Shown here: positions 2,891-51,039 of the stretch, piece after piece | Position numbering within the stretch: the stretch's first letter is position 1 | How the letters are laid out: each line of letters starts with the position of its first letter | Source: Thiobacillus denitrificans | Lineage (GTDB): Bacteria; Pseudomonadota; Gammaproteobacteria; Burkholderiales; Thiobacillaceae | DNA: 64,000 bases | Direction of reading: 5' to 3' | Assembly: GCA_002403375.1 (NCBI GenBank) | Contig: DHHQ01000027.1 | Coordinates: 142,401 to 206,400, forward strand | The notes under the pieces: generated by a model | Seen by the model: only the letters and a program-made list of their open reading frames with translations | What the model was told of the DNA's origin: nothing | The model's database searches: none | Position numbers and translations under genes: made by a program

Positions 2891-3670
2891 TTAGATTCCG
2901 TGATAGCGAACGCCGAGGTTGAGATTGAGGTCGGCACGCACCTGCTTGGTCGGCAGTTCGCGCAGACGCCTGGAAATCTCGCTTTCGGGGTCATTCATGT
3001 CGCCGAACAGCAGGGCGTTGTGGCCGGCGGCGGTGCACGCCTCGGCGCACGCCGTATTGCCGTCGCCACGATCGACCTTCTGCACGCAGAAGGTGCACGC
3101 CTCGACGCAGCCGATGCCGCGCGGAACGTCCGGCTTCTGGGTGTCGTTCAGCGACTCGTGCACCAGCGAACGCGCCTTGTACGGGCACGCCATCATGCAG
3201 TAGCGGCAGCCGATGCAGGTATGGCGGTTGACCAGCACGATGCCGTCGGCGCGCTTGAACGACGCGCCGGTCGGGCACACGTCGACGCACGGCGGCTCGG
3301 CGCAGTGCTGGCACAGCATCGGCAGGTTGGTTTCCATCTGCGTCAGCGGATCCTGCAGCTCGAGCTTGCGGATCCACTGCGGCGCCTGCTTGGGATGCTT
3401 GCTCTCCGCCACCGGGGTCCAGCCGTTCTCGGTGCTGCAAGCCGTCACGCAGTCATTGCAGCCGGTCGCGCACTTGGTCGCGTCGACCAGCATGCCCCAG
3501 CGCACCGCGCTGCTGGCGGGCTGGTCTTCGGGGCGGCCGTGCGCCACTTCGATCAGCATCACGCCGGGCGCGATCGCCAGGCCCGCTGCGGTCGCCGTCG
3601 CGGCGCCGACGAAACGGCGACGCTCGGGCGAGCTGGGCGTGTTGTCGGACATCGGTTTCATATCGCTCAT
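2891..3670 (-). CDS. dsrO: DsrO, Tat-exported 4Fe-4S ferredoxin-like subunit
   Basis: ERRRFV twin-arginine signal; CATGCNDCVTAC, CQHCAEPPCVDVCP, CIGCRYCMMACP clusters. Confidence 0.93.
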   Translation of the reverse strand: MSDMKPMSDNTPSSPERRRFVGAATATAAGLAIAPGVMLIEVAHGRPEDQPASSAVRWGMLVDATKCATGCNDCVTACSTENGWTPVAESKHPKQAPQWIRKLELQDPLTQMETNLPMLCQHCAEPPCVDVCPTGASFKRADGIVLVNRHTCIGCRYCMMACPYKARSLVHESLNDTQKPDVPRGIGCVEACTFCVQKVDRGDGNTACAEACTAAGHNALLFGDMNDPESEISRRLRELPTKQVRADLNLNLGVRYHGI

Positions 3671-4164
3671 TTGGCAATCCCAGCCATCTCTTCGGCACTC
3701 ACCTTGGCATTGGCCTGGGAGGCGAGCTTGTGCTTGTAATGGGCGGTTTCAGCGTTCAGCGAGTGCATCGCCGCCGAGCCTTGCGGCTTGGTGGAGTGGC
3801 AATCGAAGCAGTCGATCTTGACCGCCGCGTAGCTGTGGCAGCTCACGCAGAAGTCCTCCTTGGCGGCTGCGACGCTGCCCGTCTGCTCGCTGGCGTGGCA
3901 GTTGATGCACTCCTTCAGGCTGTGCTTCGGGGTGCGCACCCCCTCGATCACGGTCTTGTCGCGATGCACGTTGAGCAGCTTCATGTGGTTCTTCCGCATG
4001 TACTCGGTGTCTTCCACGCACTGCTCACCCTTTACCGCCTTGGTGATGACCGGCTTGGGCGCGTCGCCCGCCTGGGCCGGGCCGACGGCCAGGCCCAGGC
4101 CGAGGACGGCGGCCGTCAGGACGGCCGAACCCCGCGCCAGCAGACTCTTGATCTTGCTGGCCAC
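3667..4164 (-). CDS. dsrJ: DsrJ periplasmic triheme cytochrome c
   Basis: Signal peptide; three CxxCH motifs (CINCH, CVSCH, CFDCH); between dsrL and dsrO. Confidence 0.92.
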   Translation of the reverse strand: MASKIKSLLARGSAVLTAAVLGLGLAVGPAQAGDAPKPVITKAVKGEQCVEDTEYMRKNHMKLLNVHRDKTVIEGVRTPKHSLKECINCHASEQTGSVAAAKEDFCVSCHSYAAVKIDCFDCHSTKPQGSAAMHSLNAETAHYKHKLASQANAKVSAEEMAGIAK

Positions 4165-12848: not shown

Positions 12849-12966
12849 GCCCCCGACCCCAACAGGGTTGAAAGCCGCACATCGCGCCCCCACTCATGGA
12901 GCGACGCAATGTTCACGCGCAACACACGACACGCTTAATCCATATCGCGACACGGACCGAGATTCC

Positions 12967-13188
12967 ATGCCTGAGATCACCCCTATCGACAAGATGCGCC
13001 TGCCCTTCGGCGGCCAGGAAGTCGAATTCCAGCACCTGACCCATGAAGCGGGGGGCGTGCCGTTCCTGCGCATCCGCATCCGCGAGAACAAGCGCTTCAC
13101 CATTTTCGACGTCGACCCCGCCAGCGCGGCGAAGTGGGCCGAGCTGATGCAGGCGTGGGCCAGGGACAACGCCGGGGACACGCCATGA
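12967..13188 (+). CDS. Small (73 aa) hypothetical protein
   Basis: MPEITPIDKMRLPFGGQEVEFQ...FLRIRIRENKRFTIFDVD; its stop overlaps the next start (ATGA). Confidence 0.75.
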   Translation: MPEITPIDKMRLPFGGQEVEFQHLTHEAGGVPFLRIRIRENKRFTIFDVDPASAAKWAELMQAWARDNAGDTP

Positions 13189-13841
13189 GCTGGAGCTTCC
13201 CCGAGCACAGGCCGGAGGAGTACACCCCACGCTTGATCGACCTGCAGTTCGATCTGGTCGGCACGACCATTCCGGCAGAAAACGCCCAGATGCTCGCCGA
13301 CGCGCTGCTGGGCATCCTGCCCTGGCTCGGCGAGGACTCCGGCGCCGGCATCCAGCACCTCAAGGGCGCCGAAACGAATACCGGCGACGCCTCGCTCAAC
13401 ATCAACCGCCGCACCAAGCTCTACGTGCGCGTCCCCAAGACGCGAGTCGACGACATGCAGCGGCTCGTCGGCCAGGCGGTCGATCTCGGCGGCCACACCC
13501 TGCGGATCGGCAACTTCAAGACCCGGGACTTCAGCCCGTTCGCCAACATCTATGCACACTTCGTTGACACCGGCAGCGTCACTGAAGAACAATTCGTGCA
13601 GGATGTGATGCGTGAGCTCGACGGCCGCTTCCAGTTGCGTTGCGGCTTCATCTGCGGCAAGCGGCAGACGCTGCTGACCGCGTCCGGCCAGATCTACGGC
13701 TACAGCCTGATGCTGCACGACGTGCCGCCGCACAAGTCCCTGCAACTGCAGGACGAAGGCATGGGACGCAACCGCTTGTTGGGCTGCGGGATTTTCATCC
13801 CGCACAAATCCATCGCGCCGGTCGTTCCGGCAATTCTTTAA
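13185..13841 (+). CDS. Orphan Cas6-like RAMP protein (resembles type I-MYXAN Cas6/Cmx6)
   Basis: N-terminal IDLQFDLVGTTIP strand; C-terminal G-rich loop LQDEGMGRNRLLGCGIFIPHK (GxGx5GxG); 218 aa; no other cas genes in the window. Confidence 0.8.
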   Translation: MSWSFPEHRPEEYTPRLIDLQFDLVGTTIPAENAQMLADALLGILPWLGEDSGAGIQHLKGAETNTGDASLNINRRTKLYVRVPKTRVDDMQRLVGQAVDLGGHTLRIGNFKTRDFSPFANIYAHFVDTGSVTEEQFVQDVMRELDGRFQLRCGFICGKRQTLLTASGQIYGYSLMLHDVPPHKSLQLQDEGMGRNRLLGCGIFIPHKSIAPVVPAIL

Positions 13842-13871
13842 ACCCCGTCCGGTCGTTCCGGCGATTCTTTA
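13818..13871 (+). repeat. Two-copy 23-bp hairpin direct repeat (31-nt period)
   Basis: CCGGTCGTTCCGGCAATTCTTTA (13818-13840) and CCGGTCGTTCCGGCGATTCTTTA (13849-13871), one mismatch, 8-nt spacer. Confidence 0.9.
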
Positions 13872-13895
13872 GCAACCAACCCGAAAGGAGAAACC

Positions 13896-14228
13896 ATGGC
13901 TTATGTTGTAAACGGCGAAGAGCTCGAAACCGGCGAAGAGGACTTTCTGCTGGAAGCCAACTTCAGCGACGATGTCCCCCCGGTGATCGCCGCGGCGGAA
14001 AAAATCACGCTGACCGACGAGCACTGGACGGTCATCAATTTCATGCGCGAGAAGTACAAGGAAGACGGCGCGACCCCGAACTTCCGCAACATGCTGTCCG
14101 AGATGGAAGATCTGTATCCGGGCACCGACTGGAAGAAGAAGCTGTACGAGCTGTTCCCCAACCAGCCCGCACGCCAGTCGGCGCGCGTCGCCGGCCTGAC
14201 CAAGCCTTACGGCAAGGGCGGCTACTAA
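13896..14228 (+). CDS. DsrC/TusE-family paralogue lacking all cysteines
   Basis: ITLTDEHWTVINFMRE and LYELFP...PARQSARVAGLTKP match the DsrC family; no Cys in 110 aa; AAGGAG RBS. Confidence 0.88.
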   Translation: MAYVVNGEELETGEEDFLLEANFSDDVPPVIAAAEKITLTDEHWTVINFMREKYKEDGATPNFRNMLSEMEDLYPGTDWKKKLYELFPNQPARQSARVAGLTKPYGKGGY

Positions 14229-14249
14229 GCCTCAGGCAGCAGTACCGCG

Positions 14250-14279
14250 CGGGCAGCGATGAAACTCGCTGCCCGTTTT
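14250..14279 (+). terminator. Rho-independent terminator
   Basis: CGGGCAGCGA-TGAAAC-TCGCTGCCCG followed by TTTT. Confidence 0.7.
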
Positions 14280-14313
14280 CGTCTCGAAGTTCTCATCACA
14301 GGCTTCAAGCATC

Positions 14314-15162
14314 ATGTTTTCCAACACCCTCGTTACCACTGAAGACCTGGCCGCACACCTGGACGACCCCAACTGGGTCATCCTCGACTGCCGTTTCACC
14401 CTCACCGACACCGAGGCGGGTCGTCAGGCCTACGAGAAAGCACACATCCCGGGTGCACGCTACGTGCATCTGGACAACGACCTGTCGGCCCCGGTCGGGG
14501 AGAAGACCGGCCGCCATCCCCTGCCCGACCCCGAGGTGCTGACCGCCAAACTCTGCGAGTGGGGCGTCGGCGTCAACAAGCAGGTCGTCGTCTACGACGA
14601 CAGCTATGGCTCGATGGCAGTGCGGCTGTGGTGGCTGATGCGCTGGCTCGGCCACCCCGGCGTCGCCGTGCTGGACGGCAACTACCAGAAGTGGACGCGC
14701 GAGAACCGCCCCGTCACTGCCGAAGTGCCCGCGCCGCACAAGGGCGCCTGCGCCTGCCTGCCCGAACCGAGCCAGGTCGTGACGGCCGACGAGATCCTGC
14801 GCGCCTCGCAGACCGGCGAGCAGCTGATACTCGACGCCCGCCCCGATCGCCGCTTCAGCGGCGAATTCGAGCCGCTCGACCCCGTCGCGGGCCACGTTCC
14901 CGGCGCGGTCAACTGGCCCTTCGACGAGAACCTCGACCTCGACGGCACCTTCCTGCCGCCCGAGGCGCTGCGCGAGAACTACCAGGCGATGCTGAAGGGC
15001 AAGGCGCCCTGGCAGGTGCTGCACATGTGCGGCTCCGGCGTCACCGCCTGCCACAACGTCCTGGCGATGGAAATCGCCGGGCTTCCCGGCTCCCGCCTCT
15101 ACCCCGGCTCGTGGAGCGAGTGGATCACCGATCCGTCCCGCCCCGTCGCCACAGGAGAATAA
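14314..15162 (+). CDS. sseA: Tandem-domain rhodanese (SseA / 3-mercaptopyruvate sulfurtransferase type)
   Basis: HIPGARY, GRHPLP, LDGNYQKW, active loop CGSGVTAC, LYPGSWSEW signature. Confidence 0.9.
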   Translation: MFSNTLVTTEDLAAHLDDPNWVILDCRFTLTDTEAGRQAYEKAHIPGARYVHLDNDLSAPVGEKTGRHPLPDPEVLTAKLCEWGVGVNKQVVVYDDSYGSMAVRLWWLMRWLGHPGVAVLDGNYQKWTRENRPVTAEVPAPHKGACACLPEPSQVVTADEILRASQTGEQLILDARPDRRFSGEFEPLDPVAGHVPGAVNWPFDENLDLDGTFLPPEALRENYQAMLKGKAPWQVLHMCGSGVTACHNVLAMEIAGLPGSRLYPGSWSEWITDPSRPVATGE

Positions 15163-15164
15163 GC

Positions 15165-15785
15165 ATGGTCAAACCCGTACGTGTCCGCACCGTCTGGTTC
15201 AAGAAGGACGGCGAACGCAGTGCCGAGGAGATCGCCACCGCGGTCGCCTCCACCGTCTGGCGCGTCGCCGACAAGGCGGTCGACAACCTCGGCCGCGAGA
15301 ACTACGACATCATCACCCCGGCGCGCGGCTTCAAGCTGATCGCCGAGTTCGTCGCCTTCCTGACGCACTACTGCGACCGCATGGCCTACGCCTCGCTCTC
15401 GCCCGAGCGCCGTGTCGCAGTGCTGCAGGCGATCAGCAACCGCCTCGGCGAGGTGATGGAGGAAAACATCATCAGCGTGGTCGGCCCCGACCCCAGCCGC
15501 AACTTCAAGGCCGAGTTCATCGACTTCCTCAACCGCCGCTTCGCCGACTACGCCGAATTCGAGTTTCCCGATGACGAGAAGGCGAGCTTCCCGGCGCTGC
15601 GCTTCCTCGGCCTGCAGATCCGCGAGGAGATGGGCGAGAACGACAAGACCTGGATCATGGACCAGATCATGGACATCGAGATGCCCGAGATGATGGGCAC
15701 GGTCAGGAAGAGCTTCAAGGGCCTGCTGTCCGACGCGCCGGTCAAGCGCGGCTTCGGTTCCCCGGACATGCTGCCGCCGGAATAA
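15165..15785 (+). CDS. Hypothetical protein (206 aa)
   Basis: GGAG RBS, host-like codon usage, 2-bp gap after sseA. Confidence 0.8.
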   Translation: MVKPVRVRTVWFKKDGERSAEEIATAVASTVWRVADKAVDNLGRENYDIITPARGFKLIAEFVAFLTHYCDRMAYASLSPERRVAVLQAISNRLGEVMEENIISVVGPDPSRNFKAEFIDFLNRRFADYAEFEFPDDEKASFPALRFLGLQIREEMGENDKTWIMDQIMDIEMPEMMGTVRKSFKGLLSDAPVKRGFGSPDMLPPE

Positions 15786-15789
15786 GTCC

Positions 15790-16704
15790 TTGAGCCGCTC
15801 GCCCTTCGACCTCGCCAACGAATCCGGCTACCGCGCCTGGCGCGACGCCAAGCTCGCCGCGTACCCGCGCCGCGTCGACGATCTCGTCGTGCCGGTCGCC
15901 GACCCGCGGCACCTGGCGGCAGACGAATTCGCCGCCCTCGAGGGCCGCTGCGCGCGCGCCAACATGGCGATCTACAGCGCGCCGCACCTGCCGGCCGCCG
16001 ACAAGTCGATTCCCCGGCTGCTGGGGCAGCAGCTCGGCCTCACCCGGCTGGAGGGAAACTACCTCGCCGACGAGGACGGCCTCTCGTCGATCACGCCCGC
16101 GGACGGCGAAGCCGGCGGCGTGCGCGGCGACTTCATCCCCTACACCCACAAGCCGATCAACTGGCACACCGACGGCTACTACAACGCGCTCGACCGCCGC
16201 ATCCTCGGCATGACGCTGCACTGCGCGCAGGACGCCGAATCCGGCGGCGAGAACGCACTGCTCGACCACGAGATCGCCTACCTCCAGCTGCGCGACGTGA
16301 ATCCCGACTACGTCGCCGCGCTGATGCAGCCCGACGCAATGACCATCCCGGCGCGCATGGACGAGGACAACGTGGCGCGTCCGGAGCAGTCGGGCCCCGT
16401 GTTCGCGGTCGACCCCGAGCAAGGTTTCCTCGTCATGCGTTACACCGCGCGCACCCGCTCGATCGTGTGGAAGGCCGACCCCGTCACCCAGGACGCAGTC
16501 AGGACGCTGGCCGAGATTCTCGCGAGCTCGGAATACATCCTGACCGCACGGCTCGCCCCCGGCATGGGCCTCGTCTGCAACAACGTGCTGCATACCCGCA
16601 GCGCATTTTCCGATTCGCCCGCCCATCGCCGCCTGCTCTACCGCGGCCGCTACTACGACCGCCTGCGCTTTGACCTGAACCCGCCCGCCGCGCACGCCGC
16701 CTAG
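15790..16704 (+). CDS. TauD/TfdA-like Fe(II)/2-oxoglutarate oxygenase
   Basis: INWHTDGYY (HxD), [18 protein letters not shown] distal His/Arg; TTG start. Confidence 0.8.
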
Positions 16705-50853: not shown

Positions 50854-50958
50854 GTGAAGCTCCGTTGCATGTGGCCGGGAGGGCGGGGGGCGGTTGCGCC
50901 CCGGGCTGGCGATGGCGTCGCTCACCCAACGTCCCGAACCCGGCAGGGTTGAGAAAAA

Positions 50959-51027
50959 GGTGAGCGCGGTTGTTGCCTTTTCCGAGCCTGGGGACGGACG
51001 AACCCGCCTCGCAGCGCTCCTCGGAAG
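50959..51027 (-). ncRNA. SAH riboswitch
   Basis: Minus strand CCGAGGAGCGCTGCGA...CCAGGCTCGG...AACCGCGCTCACC matches the SAH aptamer P1/P4 and GAGCGC/GCGCTC pseudoknot; upstream of ahcY. Confidence 0.9.
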
Positions 51028-51039
51028 CGAAATTATAGC

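Follow-up and report, generated by a model that had tools for sequence, protein, structure and literature searches.

A tandem-duplicated gene-end hairpin module between a stand-alone cas6-family gene and a DsrC-like gene of Thiobacillus

Does a short direct repeat beside a Cas6-family gene have to be related to CRISPR (short palindromic repeats, clustered and regularly interspaced)? The question is raised by a stretch of Thiobacillus DNA of 64,000 nucleotides (nt), referred to here as the window, in which two hairpin-forming copies of a 23-nt sequence stand between a stand-alone gene of the Cas6/Cmx6 family and a gene for a DsrC-like protein. An earlier note on this DNA regarded the pair as a CRISPR-like mini-repeat. 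The repeat is real, old and functional-looking, yet it is an ordinary kind of element, a tandem-duplicated gene-end hairpin at a transcription-unit boundary. Judged from orthologous sequences, a 31-nt module at the very end of the cas6-family gene was duplicated in tandem long ago, and its copy number varies. As read from the alignments, the module is a G+C hairpin of 5-6 base pairs (bp) in the plus-strand RNA, followed by a sequence-specific tail, GAWTC(T/A)TT(A), that holds the stop codon. It separates the weakly expressed DUF6967 and cas6-like genes from the separately, and very strongly, expressed DsrC-like gene. A repeat beside a Cas6-family gene thus need not be CRISPR-related; here it is a gene-end hairpin module between two transcription units.

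Copy 1, CCGGTCGTTCCGGCAATTCTTTA, occupies positions 13818-13840 of the plus strand, and copy 2, CCGGTCGTTCCGGCGATTCTTTA, positions 13849-13871. The copies are identical at 22 of 23 positions and recur with a period of 31 nt from start to start, leaving 8 nt in between. Copy 1 comprises the codons for PVVPAIL and the first two bases of the TAA stop codon (13839-13841) of the cas6-family gene. Its hairpin, GCCGG-TCGTT-CCGGC (hairpin 1; 13817-13831, plus strand), recognised by folding and covariation, falls in the last codons of that gene and is followed by the tail AATTCTTTA. Copy 2 is a non-coding duplicate with the hairpin CCGG-TCGTT-CCGG, an outer CG/CG pair (13846-13863) and the tail GATTCTTTA, and 24 nt separate its end from the ATG (13896) of the DsrC-like gene. 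Both the spacing of the copies and their placement relative to the two genes are as the earlier note had described them, as confirmed from the sequence and by a repeat search. A point absent from that note is that copy 2, in its own frame, also reads PVVPAIL followed by a stop (TAG), and copy 2 is therefore a duplicated gene end.

The pair is specific to this place. With up to three mismatches allowed, the 23-mer matches only these two sites in the window, and none of 100 dinucleotide shuffles contained any match. Tandem Repeats Finder detected no CRISPR array in the window and left the pair unlisted (too few copies). A search of the whole window with Rfam also gave no CRISPR array, the only match being a riboswitch elsewhere. 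No further occurrence of the hairpin-tail motif was found in the window or in 486 kb of orthologous flanks. The conserved core of the tail, GAWTC (13832-13836 and 13864-13868), is palindromic and belongs to the GANTC class, the methylation motif of the HinfI/CcrM type.

Orthologs of the locus were compared in 80 cases from Thiobacillaceae and Sulfuriferula (76-86% protein identity), giving 81 loci with the window. The pair of cas6-like and DsrC-like genes is present in all 80. In 43 loci the cas6 stop codon lies about 10-30 nt from the Shine-Dalgarno sequence, with no second unit; in 36 loci a single extra unit is present and the distance is about 37-50 nt. The remaining two are L021, with two extra units, and L032, in which one extra unit is accompanied by a 177-nt insertion. 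That insertion (about 3660-3840, from the cas6 stop to copy 2) has inverted-repeat flanks, AACCCGGATAATCCATTAGG ... CCTAATGGATTATCCGGGTT, and resembles a miniature inverted-repeat element. The number of units per locus is thus 1, 2 or 3 (81 loci), with a copy 2 in about 38 of the 81 and a single copy in about half.

The earlier note had allowed for a recent local duplication, missing from orthologous loci. The duplicate was found in about half of the 80 loci, and since the unit occurs one to three times across them it is no recent local accident. Early-branching lineages have a single copy, and the copy number has changed state at least 12 times on the gene tree. Three single-copy loci (L017, L020 and L025) end in ...CTTTAG|TGACC, a chimera of copy 1 and copy 2 with the right flank of copy 2, and therefore reflect deletion through recombination between the copies. 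Variable unit number and recombinant junctions such as these mark a tandem duplication with turnover of copy number. Copy 2 sequence types are common to species in which copy 1 has diverged, so the duplicate has been inherited. The near-identity of the two copies in the window is the exception.

Each copy does fold into the hairpin that had been proposed for it, with predicted energies of -9.8 kcal/mol for copy 1 (GCCGG/CCGGC) and -8.4 kcal/mol for copy 2. The energies themselves are unexceptional: 7 of 200 shuffled sequences were as stable as copy 1 and 20 of 200 as stable as copy 2, and the window contains 10 occurrences of CCGG-N5-CCGG where 5.25 are expected. Support for the hairpin comes from comparative data, not from folding energy. 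Across 60 distinct orthologous copy 1 sequences, a 6-bp helix of the CGCCGG/CCGGCG type has 92% of its cells paired; shifted pairing registers have just 15-48%. The helix contains 17 double-change cells compared with 3.0 ± 1.4 in shuffles, a number reached in 0 of 500. For example, covariation links the wobble base of the Ala codon 207 to the second base of codon 212 (G:C 54, A:T 19, T:A 3, other 5). The changes in codon 207 are synonymous, and three types of Watson-Crick pair occur at this one pair. At another pair of copy 1, G:C has become T:A in two lineages by way of the rare Pro codon CCT opposite CAG. The Pro codons of the stem are CCG in 74 of 78 and 70 of 71 sequences, where other Pro columns are mixed, and the last 12 cas6 codons are constrained at synonymous sites. 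The loop of copy 2 differs between loci in both sequence and length (3-18 nt), yet a hairpin is retained at that position in all of them. The outer copy 2 pairs are G-C in 18 and G.U in 4 cases, and C-G in 8 and U.G in 8, and such wobbles pair only in the plus-strand RNA. Pairing of the hairpin is shown by these compensatory substitutions to be under selection.

The tail has been conserved along with the stem. Of the 22 distinct copy 2 sequences of canonical form, 21-22 retain A16 and CTTTA, whereas the copy 2 loop, the spacer and the fourfold sites of the gene have entropies of 1.1-1.7 bits. The tail GAWTCTTTA is intact in at least one copy of every locus. Codon 213, where it encodes Asn, shows how the copies depend on each other. 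It is AAT, which keeps GAAUC, in 19 single-copy and 2 two-copy loci, and AAC in 0 single-copy and 17 two-copy loci (Fisher test 1e-8, without correction for phylogeny). The AAC codon has at least three origins, every one in a two-copy lineage. Copy 2, in turn, is degenerate in a clade with an intact copy 1 tail (L010, L014, L027, L028 and L031). The comparison of loci shows that the two copies are redundant, with the copy 1 tail decaying only where copy 2 exists, and because of this complementary decay at least one intact hairpin-plus-tail per locus seems to be required. The last 60 nt of the cas6-like gene are accordingly under constraints at the nucleotide level. Lineages with one, two or three copies, together with the complementary decay, make up a natural experiment on duplication and the sharing of function in small regulatory modules.

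RNA ends were examined in the two-copy ortholog of T. denitrificans DSM 12475 (L053), for which three stranded raw-read runs were used (X44, X58 and X59; conditions unknown). The window's own sequence occurs in none of the RNA runs. In L053, copy 1 lies at 3634-3656, copy 2 at 3666-3688 and the DsrC-like ATG at 3713. The RNA 5' end was read as the 'end' of molecules with the first mate on the minus strand, a choice that agrees with the coverage start for the DsrC-like gene and for dsrA. Read depth is 350-770 over the DUF6967 gene, 10-25 over the middle of cas6 (X58, X59) and 46-230 over its last third. Over the DsrC-like gene it rises to 2279 (X59), about 4100 (X44) and 11589 (X58). DsrC-like RNA is the most abundant of the L053 locus, exceeding mid-cas6 RNA 215-550 times. 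Relative to upstream RNA the ratio varies from about 10 to about 550, and the two do not track each other between runs. With upstream RNA that much scarcer and the ratio changing from run to run, a separate start fits better than cleavage of a common precursor.

The start itself is sharp. A single-nucleotide pile-up of 5' ends was seen at G3668 of L053, with 59 molecules in X44, 189 in X58 and a clear step in X59, and it comes with a 30-fold step in RNA. G3668 is 12 nt past copy 1 and is the third base of the copy 2 5' arm, and the main DsrC-like RNA therefore cannot form hairpin 2. A second 5' end, where the density of read starts rises 2.3-2.7-fold in all three runs, lies at 3698-3704, about 12 nt past copy 2. 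Downstream uncoupling at this site, as the earlier note had suggested, is borne out, for DsrC-like RNA does start here in T. denitrificans. This places the start of the RNA that is most abundant in this dsr-adjacent locus, that of a cysteine-less DsrC paralogue. By homology, the main 5' end in the window would be at 13851-13852 (plus strand), in the copy 2 5' arm. The second 5' end or cut site, CCC|GAAAGGAG, is predicted at 13883 (plus strand), 12 nt past the end of copy 2, from L053 ~3699/3700. Just past the DsrC-like ATG, at L053 3716-3718, a reproducible spike of read starts in three runs comes with no rise in start density, and could be a cleavage or a library hot spot.

RNAs arriving from upstream were found to end near the module in one run. 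In X59 only, about 95 reads (116 first mates) of upstream RNAs end at 3692-3700; in X44 and X58 the number equals random expectation. These X59 RNAs start at 3427/3432, just past a sigma-70-like site in cas6, and span 3668. Most of the RNAs that come from the operon promoter reach no further than the first 200 nt of the cas6-like gene, ending shortly past the DUF6967 stop (L053 3034 and 3201-3202; X59, X58), and full-length cas6-like mRNA is therefore scarce in these two samples.

There is about an even chance, in our estimate, that what stands between the two transcription units is a tandem-duplicated boundary module made of a hairpin plus a 5'-end determinant. The tail, with its flanks, would then belong to a non-consensus, probably activator-dependent promoter embedded in the cas6 end, or to another 5'-end determinant of the DsrC-like gene. 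The hairpin would act on RNAs arriving from upstream, through 3'-end formation or through stabilisation. The main DsrC-like mRNA, starting inside the copy 2 stem, could not form hairpin 2 and would pass it. Slippage or unequal recombination may have produced the duplication, to be repeatedly lost and regained since, with two tandem modules as the outcome.

A promoter in the 3' end of an upstream gene would likewise give a sharp 5' end, a level independent of upstream RNA and constrained synonymous sites in the last codons of that gene, and tandem duplicated promoters would give a second start one repeat period downstream. The module differs from an embedded promoter in that no -35/-10 or -24/-12 consensus was found at it, selection on spacer base pairing is no feature of promoters, and the ends are only putatively primary. 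Several candidates for such a promoter were rejected. A sigma-54 reading (GG-N10-GC in copy 2 of the window and L053) fails, as GC occurs in 3 of 22 distinct copy 2 sequences and in none after copy 1. Sigma-28, extracytoplasmic function (ECF) and integration host factor (IHF)-like readings of the tail do not fit by sequence.

Like an intrinsic terminator or an intercistronic stabilising stem-loop, the module has a U-rich tract behind a G+C hairpin at the stop codon, and in one run upstream RNAs end shortly past copy 2. Some relatives have runs of U5-U7 after the stem (L065-type, L083); other clades are U-poor. A scan for terminator patterns picks out copy 1 of the window and copy 2 of L053, but such sites are no more numerous than in shuffles (3 against 2.0 ± 1.5). 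In contrast to an intrinsic terminator, the module is the place where an abundant RNA begins, inside its second stem.

A number of observations weigh against a boundary module of this kind. A promoter scan and reading of the sequence gave no recognisable sigma-70 or sigma-54 consensus upstream of G3668; the best -10-like strings near the module in L053, TTTAAC and TAACCC, lack A-11 or T-7. RNA libraries of this type cannot separate primary from processed 5' ends. The 3' ends in X59 lie 12-20 nt past the stem, compared with 7-9 nt for an intrinsic terminator, and come from one of the three runs, X44 and X58 showing none. The stem is short, at 4-6 bp, and the U tract of the window is weak and interrupted (AAUUCUUUAA). 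The non-U bases of the tail are conserved, although a terminator does not need them, and about ten single-copy loci have a U-poor tail (GAAUCAUUGA). Finally, the organism of the window contributed none of the RNA data, all of which were obtained from an ortholog with 78% protein identity.

An alternative that we consider possible, though unlikely, is processing by a host RNase. The DsrC-like mRNA would be transcribed from a strong promoter inside cas6 or from the operon promoter and then cut within copy 2 (CC|GG), at CCC|GAAAGGAG or at both, with a leader that decays fast and a stable DsrC-like part. The internal promoter is a sigma-70-like site, TTGACA-18-AACAAT, at 13564-13593 of the plus strand, matching the consensus at 10 of 12 positions in the window, in L053 (3380-3409) and in L080. 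Among 81 orthologs, the stretch that contains it has the lowest synonymous variation of the cas6-family gene, and no consensus promoter precedes G3668. RNA 5' ends were observed 18-23 nt past this site in L053 run X59, near the in-frame ATG of Met142; the site was not found in relatives of 42-45% identity. Processing would also account for X59 3' ends at 3692-3700 that adjoin the rise of 5' starts at 3698-3704, as from one cut, and for the position of both 5' ends about 20 nt past a stem, which fits a structure-guided cut. It would, however, need a precursor 10-175 times rarer than its product, with a ratio that does not track between runs. Moreover, X59 accumulates uncut molecules across 3668, and no 3' pile-up is present at 3667. 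RNase E prefers A/U-rich sites, and the sites here are not A/U-rich. RNase III acting on an inter-copy duplex (-26 kcal/mol) is unsupported, since its geometry predicts a partner end at 3647 and minor 5' ends were seen at 3641-3646 (X58).

The presence of a Cas6-family gene directs attention to its protein as the partner of the hairpin. The gene lies at 13185-13841 of the plus strand and encodes 218 amino acids, its true start being the ATG at 13185 and not the GTG at 13134; homologs have 218-219 amino acids. That it is Cas6-like, as had been stated before, is correct: the protein is a true Cas6/Cmx6-family member, with full-length matches above the curated cut-offs to PF09559 (2e-58, 197.8 bits, cut-off 26.7) and TIGR02807 (3e-67, 226.3 bits, cut-off 98.85). 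It also matches the PADLOC profile Cas6a MYXAN (7e-68), and among solved structures the nearest is 8FCJ_B (E value 7e-13), a Cas6 from a type I-B Cascade. The G-rich loop GxGxxRxxGCGxFxP is invariant between solo Cas6-family proteins and cyanobacterial Cmx6, and the protein is under purifying selection. The Pfam Cas6 domain ends at residue 226 of the 235-residue open reading frame. Beyond it is the C-terminal tail encoded by copy 1 (IAPVVPAIL), which is not present in CRISPR-linked Cmx6 proteins. An AlphaFold (AF2) model built on a shallow alignment was unusable, with a mean predicted local distance difference test score (pLDDT) of 57 and values below 50 for the C-terminal 40 residues.

A bona fide type I-MYXAN locus is found on plasmid pSYLB of Synechocystis sp. 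PCC 6714, with the gene order cas6-cas3-cas8-cas7-cas5-cas4/1-cas2. Each of the 12 repeats of 36 nt in its array (L082), GTGTCCAAACCATTGATGCCGTAAGGCGTTGAGCAC, forms a G+C stem that carries a GUAA loop and is followed by a tail of 8 nt. The Thiobacillus module resembles CRISPR repeats of type I-B or I-MYXAN in its short G+C stem, small loop and conserved single-stranded tail of ~8-10 nt, in its direct repetition and in its location beside a Cas6/Cmx6-family gene. CRISPR arrays are direct repeats of 23-47 nt with unique spacers of similar length; arrays have unique spacers of ~35 nt, whereas the module has 1-3 copies and a gap of 8 nt, and copy 1 is coding. With the 36-nt cognate repeat it shares the general shape and not the sequence. 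Its neighbours are genes for DUF6967, DsrC-like, rhodanese and TauD-like proteins, unlike those of a CRISPR locus, and no Cas hits were obtained for the open reading frames flanking the cas6-family gene, no search for cas genes having been made elsewhere in the window; the comparison of neighbours covered the window and flanks of 6.6 kb. Lacking the layout of an array, the sequence of the cognate repeat and cas genes as neighbours within that range, the CRISPR-like reading fails three tests, and the module is not a mini-CRISPR array.

A Cas6-family protein could still bind the hairpin-plus-tail on the 3' end of its own mRNA, possibly cutting at a non-canonical distance, and thereby autoregulate or set the fate of RNAs that cross the boundary; this we regard as decidedly unlikely. 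Cas6 substrates show this pattern of conservation, a hairpin under selection joined to a 3' tail of specific sequence; the cognate type I-MYXAN repeat is alike in its short loop, short G+C stem and tail of 8 nt, and the protein retains its G-rich loop under purifying selection. Hairpins over the cas6 stop recur in deep relatives, including L086, which has a different next gene and no U run. Of the stem-plus-3'-handle architecture named in the earlier note, the stem has stood, as it is conserved with compensatory changes, and so has the 3' flank, which is also conserved, but no RNA 5' end was found at the 3' base of the stem. No 5'-end step was detected at the 3' bases of either stem (L053 3648-3650 and 3680-3682) in three runs with low cas6-like RNA. 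Cleavage by Cas6 at the hairpin base has thus not been borne out in L053: the ends at 3668 and ~3700 lie about 20 nt further downstream, not at a stem base where cutting would leave an 8-nt handle. The 23-mer has no sequence in common with the cognate repeat, and the main DsrC-like mRNA starts in the copy 2 stem, hence without the hairpin. In the two runs with prominent ends, mid-cas6 RNA is very low (depth 10-25). Nor does the motif recur in the window or the 486-kb flanks, and two deep relatives, L084 and L085, have no clear G+C hairpin.

A broader form of this idea, which appears very unlikely, is that the stand-alone Cas6 has been recruited as an RNA-binding regulator that recognises the hairpin-plus-tail on its own transcript and controls the fate of RNA at the DsrC-like boundary. 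If true, a CRISPR nuclease would have been domesticated for the control of sulfur-metabolism genes, with the duplicated module as a minimal 'repeat'. The module is in any case the obvious first RNA with which to probe the role of the conserved stand-alone Cas6 in a sulfur-relay operon. A literature search on Cas6 with DsrC, Cmx6, DUF6967 and orphan Cas6 returned nothing on this locus or cluster among the papers searched; one of them deals with Cas6 competition within CRISPR systems and not with mRNA hairpins (PMC12102369).

It is highly improbable that copy 2 is a neutral relic, with only the coding copy (or nothing) functional and the duplicate a debris of slippage, young or refreshed by gene conversion. 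The 12 or more changes of copy number on the gene tree, the recombination deletions visible in L017, L020 and L025 and the one clade with a degenerate copy 2 would suit such debris, and the near-identity of the window copies, loops included, is what recent conversion would give. Against this, in species with a diverged copy 1, conservation is far stronger in the copy 2 stems and tail than in the copy 2 loop, the spacer or the fourfold sites of the neighbouring gene. Copy 2 types shared across species are inherited, and decay of the copy 1 tail and of copy 2 is complementary.

The least probable of the readings is a DNA operator, in which the dyad CCGG-N5-CCGG and the palindromic GAWTC would form a transcription-factor site repeated three helical turns apart around the start; the 31-32-bp spacing that puts the copies on the same helix face, their classical operator positions (copy 1 at -34 to -12 and copy 2 at -2 to +21 of the 3668 end) and the sequence-specific conservation of the tail speak for it, but against it stand a loop length of 3-18 nt among orthologs with pairing kept, G.U and U.G wobbles (12 of 46 outer-pair cells) that keep RNA pairing and not DNA symmetry, and compensatory changes that maintain complementarity rather than a fixed sequence.

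Another hairpin may precede the pair. A perfect 7-bp stem, GCGGGAU-UUUC-AUCCCGC, can be drawn at 13786-13803 of the plus strand in the codons for CGIFIPH, which belong to the Cas6 G-rich loop, one repeat period (about 31 nt) upstream of hairpin 1. Across 81 loci, five of its pairs are nearly invariant and one varies (G:C 57, A:T 6, G:T 3, non-pairs 15), so that covariation weakly suggests a third hairpin. The codons TGC, CCG, AAA and TCC of this region have low synonymous entropy and are nearly invariant.

The window as a whole represents a dsr locus of Thiobacillus, the name carried by the nearest proteins, and its minus strand has dsrAB and dsrEFH. On the plus strand, directed away from dsrA, stand the genes for the DUF6967, Cas6/Cmx6-family, DsrC/TusE-family and rhodanese proteins. 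The DUF6967 gene (12868-13188, plus strand; Pfam PF22295, 6e-30) is the first of the conserved cluster, and its stop overlaps the start of the cas6-family gene. The DsrC-like gene is preceded by the Shine-Dalgarno sequence AAAGGAG (13884-13890, plus strand), kept in 81 of 81 loci, and occupies 13896-14228 of the plus strand (L053 3713-4045). Its product of 110 amino acids matches PF04358 (2e-29) and TIGR03342 and ends in ...KPYGKGGY, without both conserved C-terminal cysteines of DsrC. After this gene is a strong terminator-like hairpin of 11 bp followed by a T run (14249-14276, plus strand); at its L053 equivalent, 4086-4106, read depth drops.

The cluster has also been observed in deeper relatives. 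In a library clustered at 50% identity, the solo Cas6 clade is one cluster, and its next relatives are 36-45% identical. The order DUF6967-Cas6-DsrC is found in five of the six relatives looked up, and on contigs that extend far enough the rhodanese, an unnamed protein and TauD come next; the sixth has a TusA-domain gene downstream of Cas6. A six-gene cluster of DUF6967, Cas6, cysteine-less DsrC-like protein, rhodanese, an unnamed protein of ~190-205 amino acids and a TauD-family dioxygenase is conserved to 42-45% identity (window 12868-16704, plus strand; L083, L085, L087 and L089). The cas6 ends of these relatives differ. In L083 a 7-bp hairpin over the stop is followed by U5, and in L089 a 6-bp hairpin by a U-rich tail. 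An 11-bp hairpin over the stop in L086 runs directly into the next start codon, and in L084 and L085 a T-rich stretch and CAACC precede the Shine-Dalgarno sequence. Far from these genes, the one Rfam match of the window, an S-adenosylhomocysteine (SAH) riboswitch (RF01057, 56 bits), lies at 50955-51028 of the minus strand.

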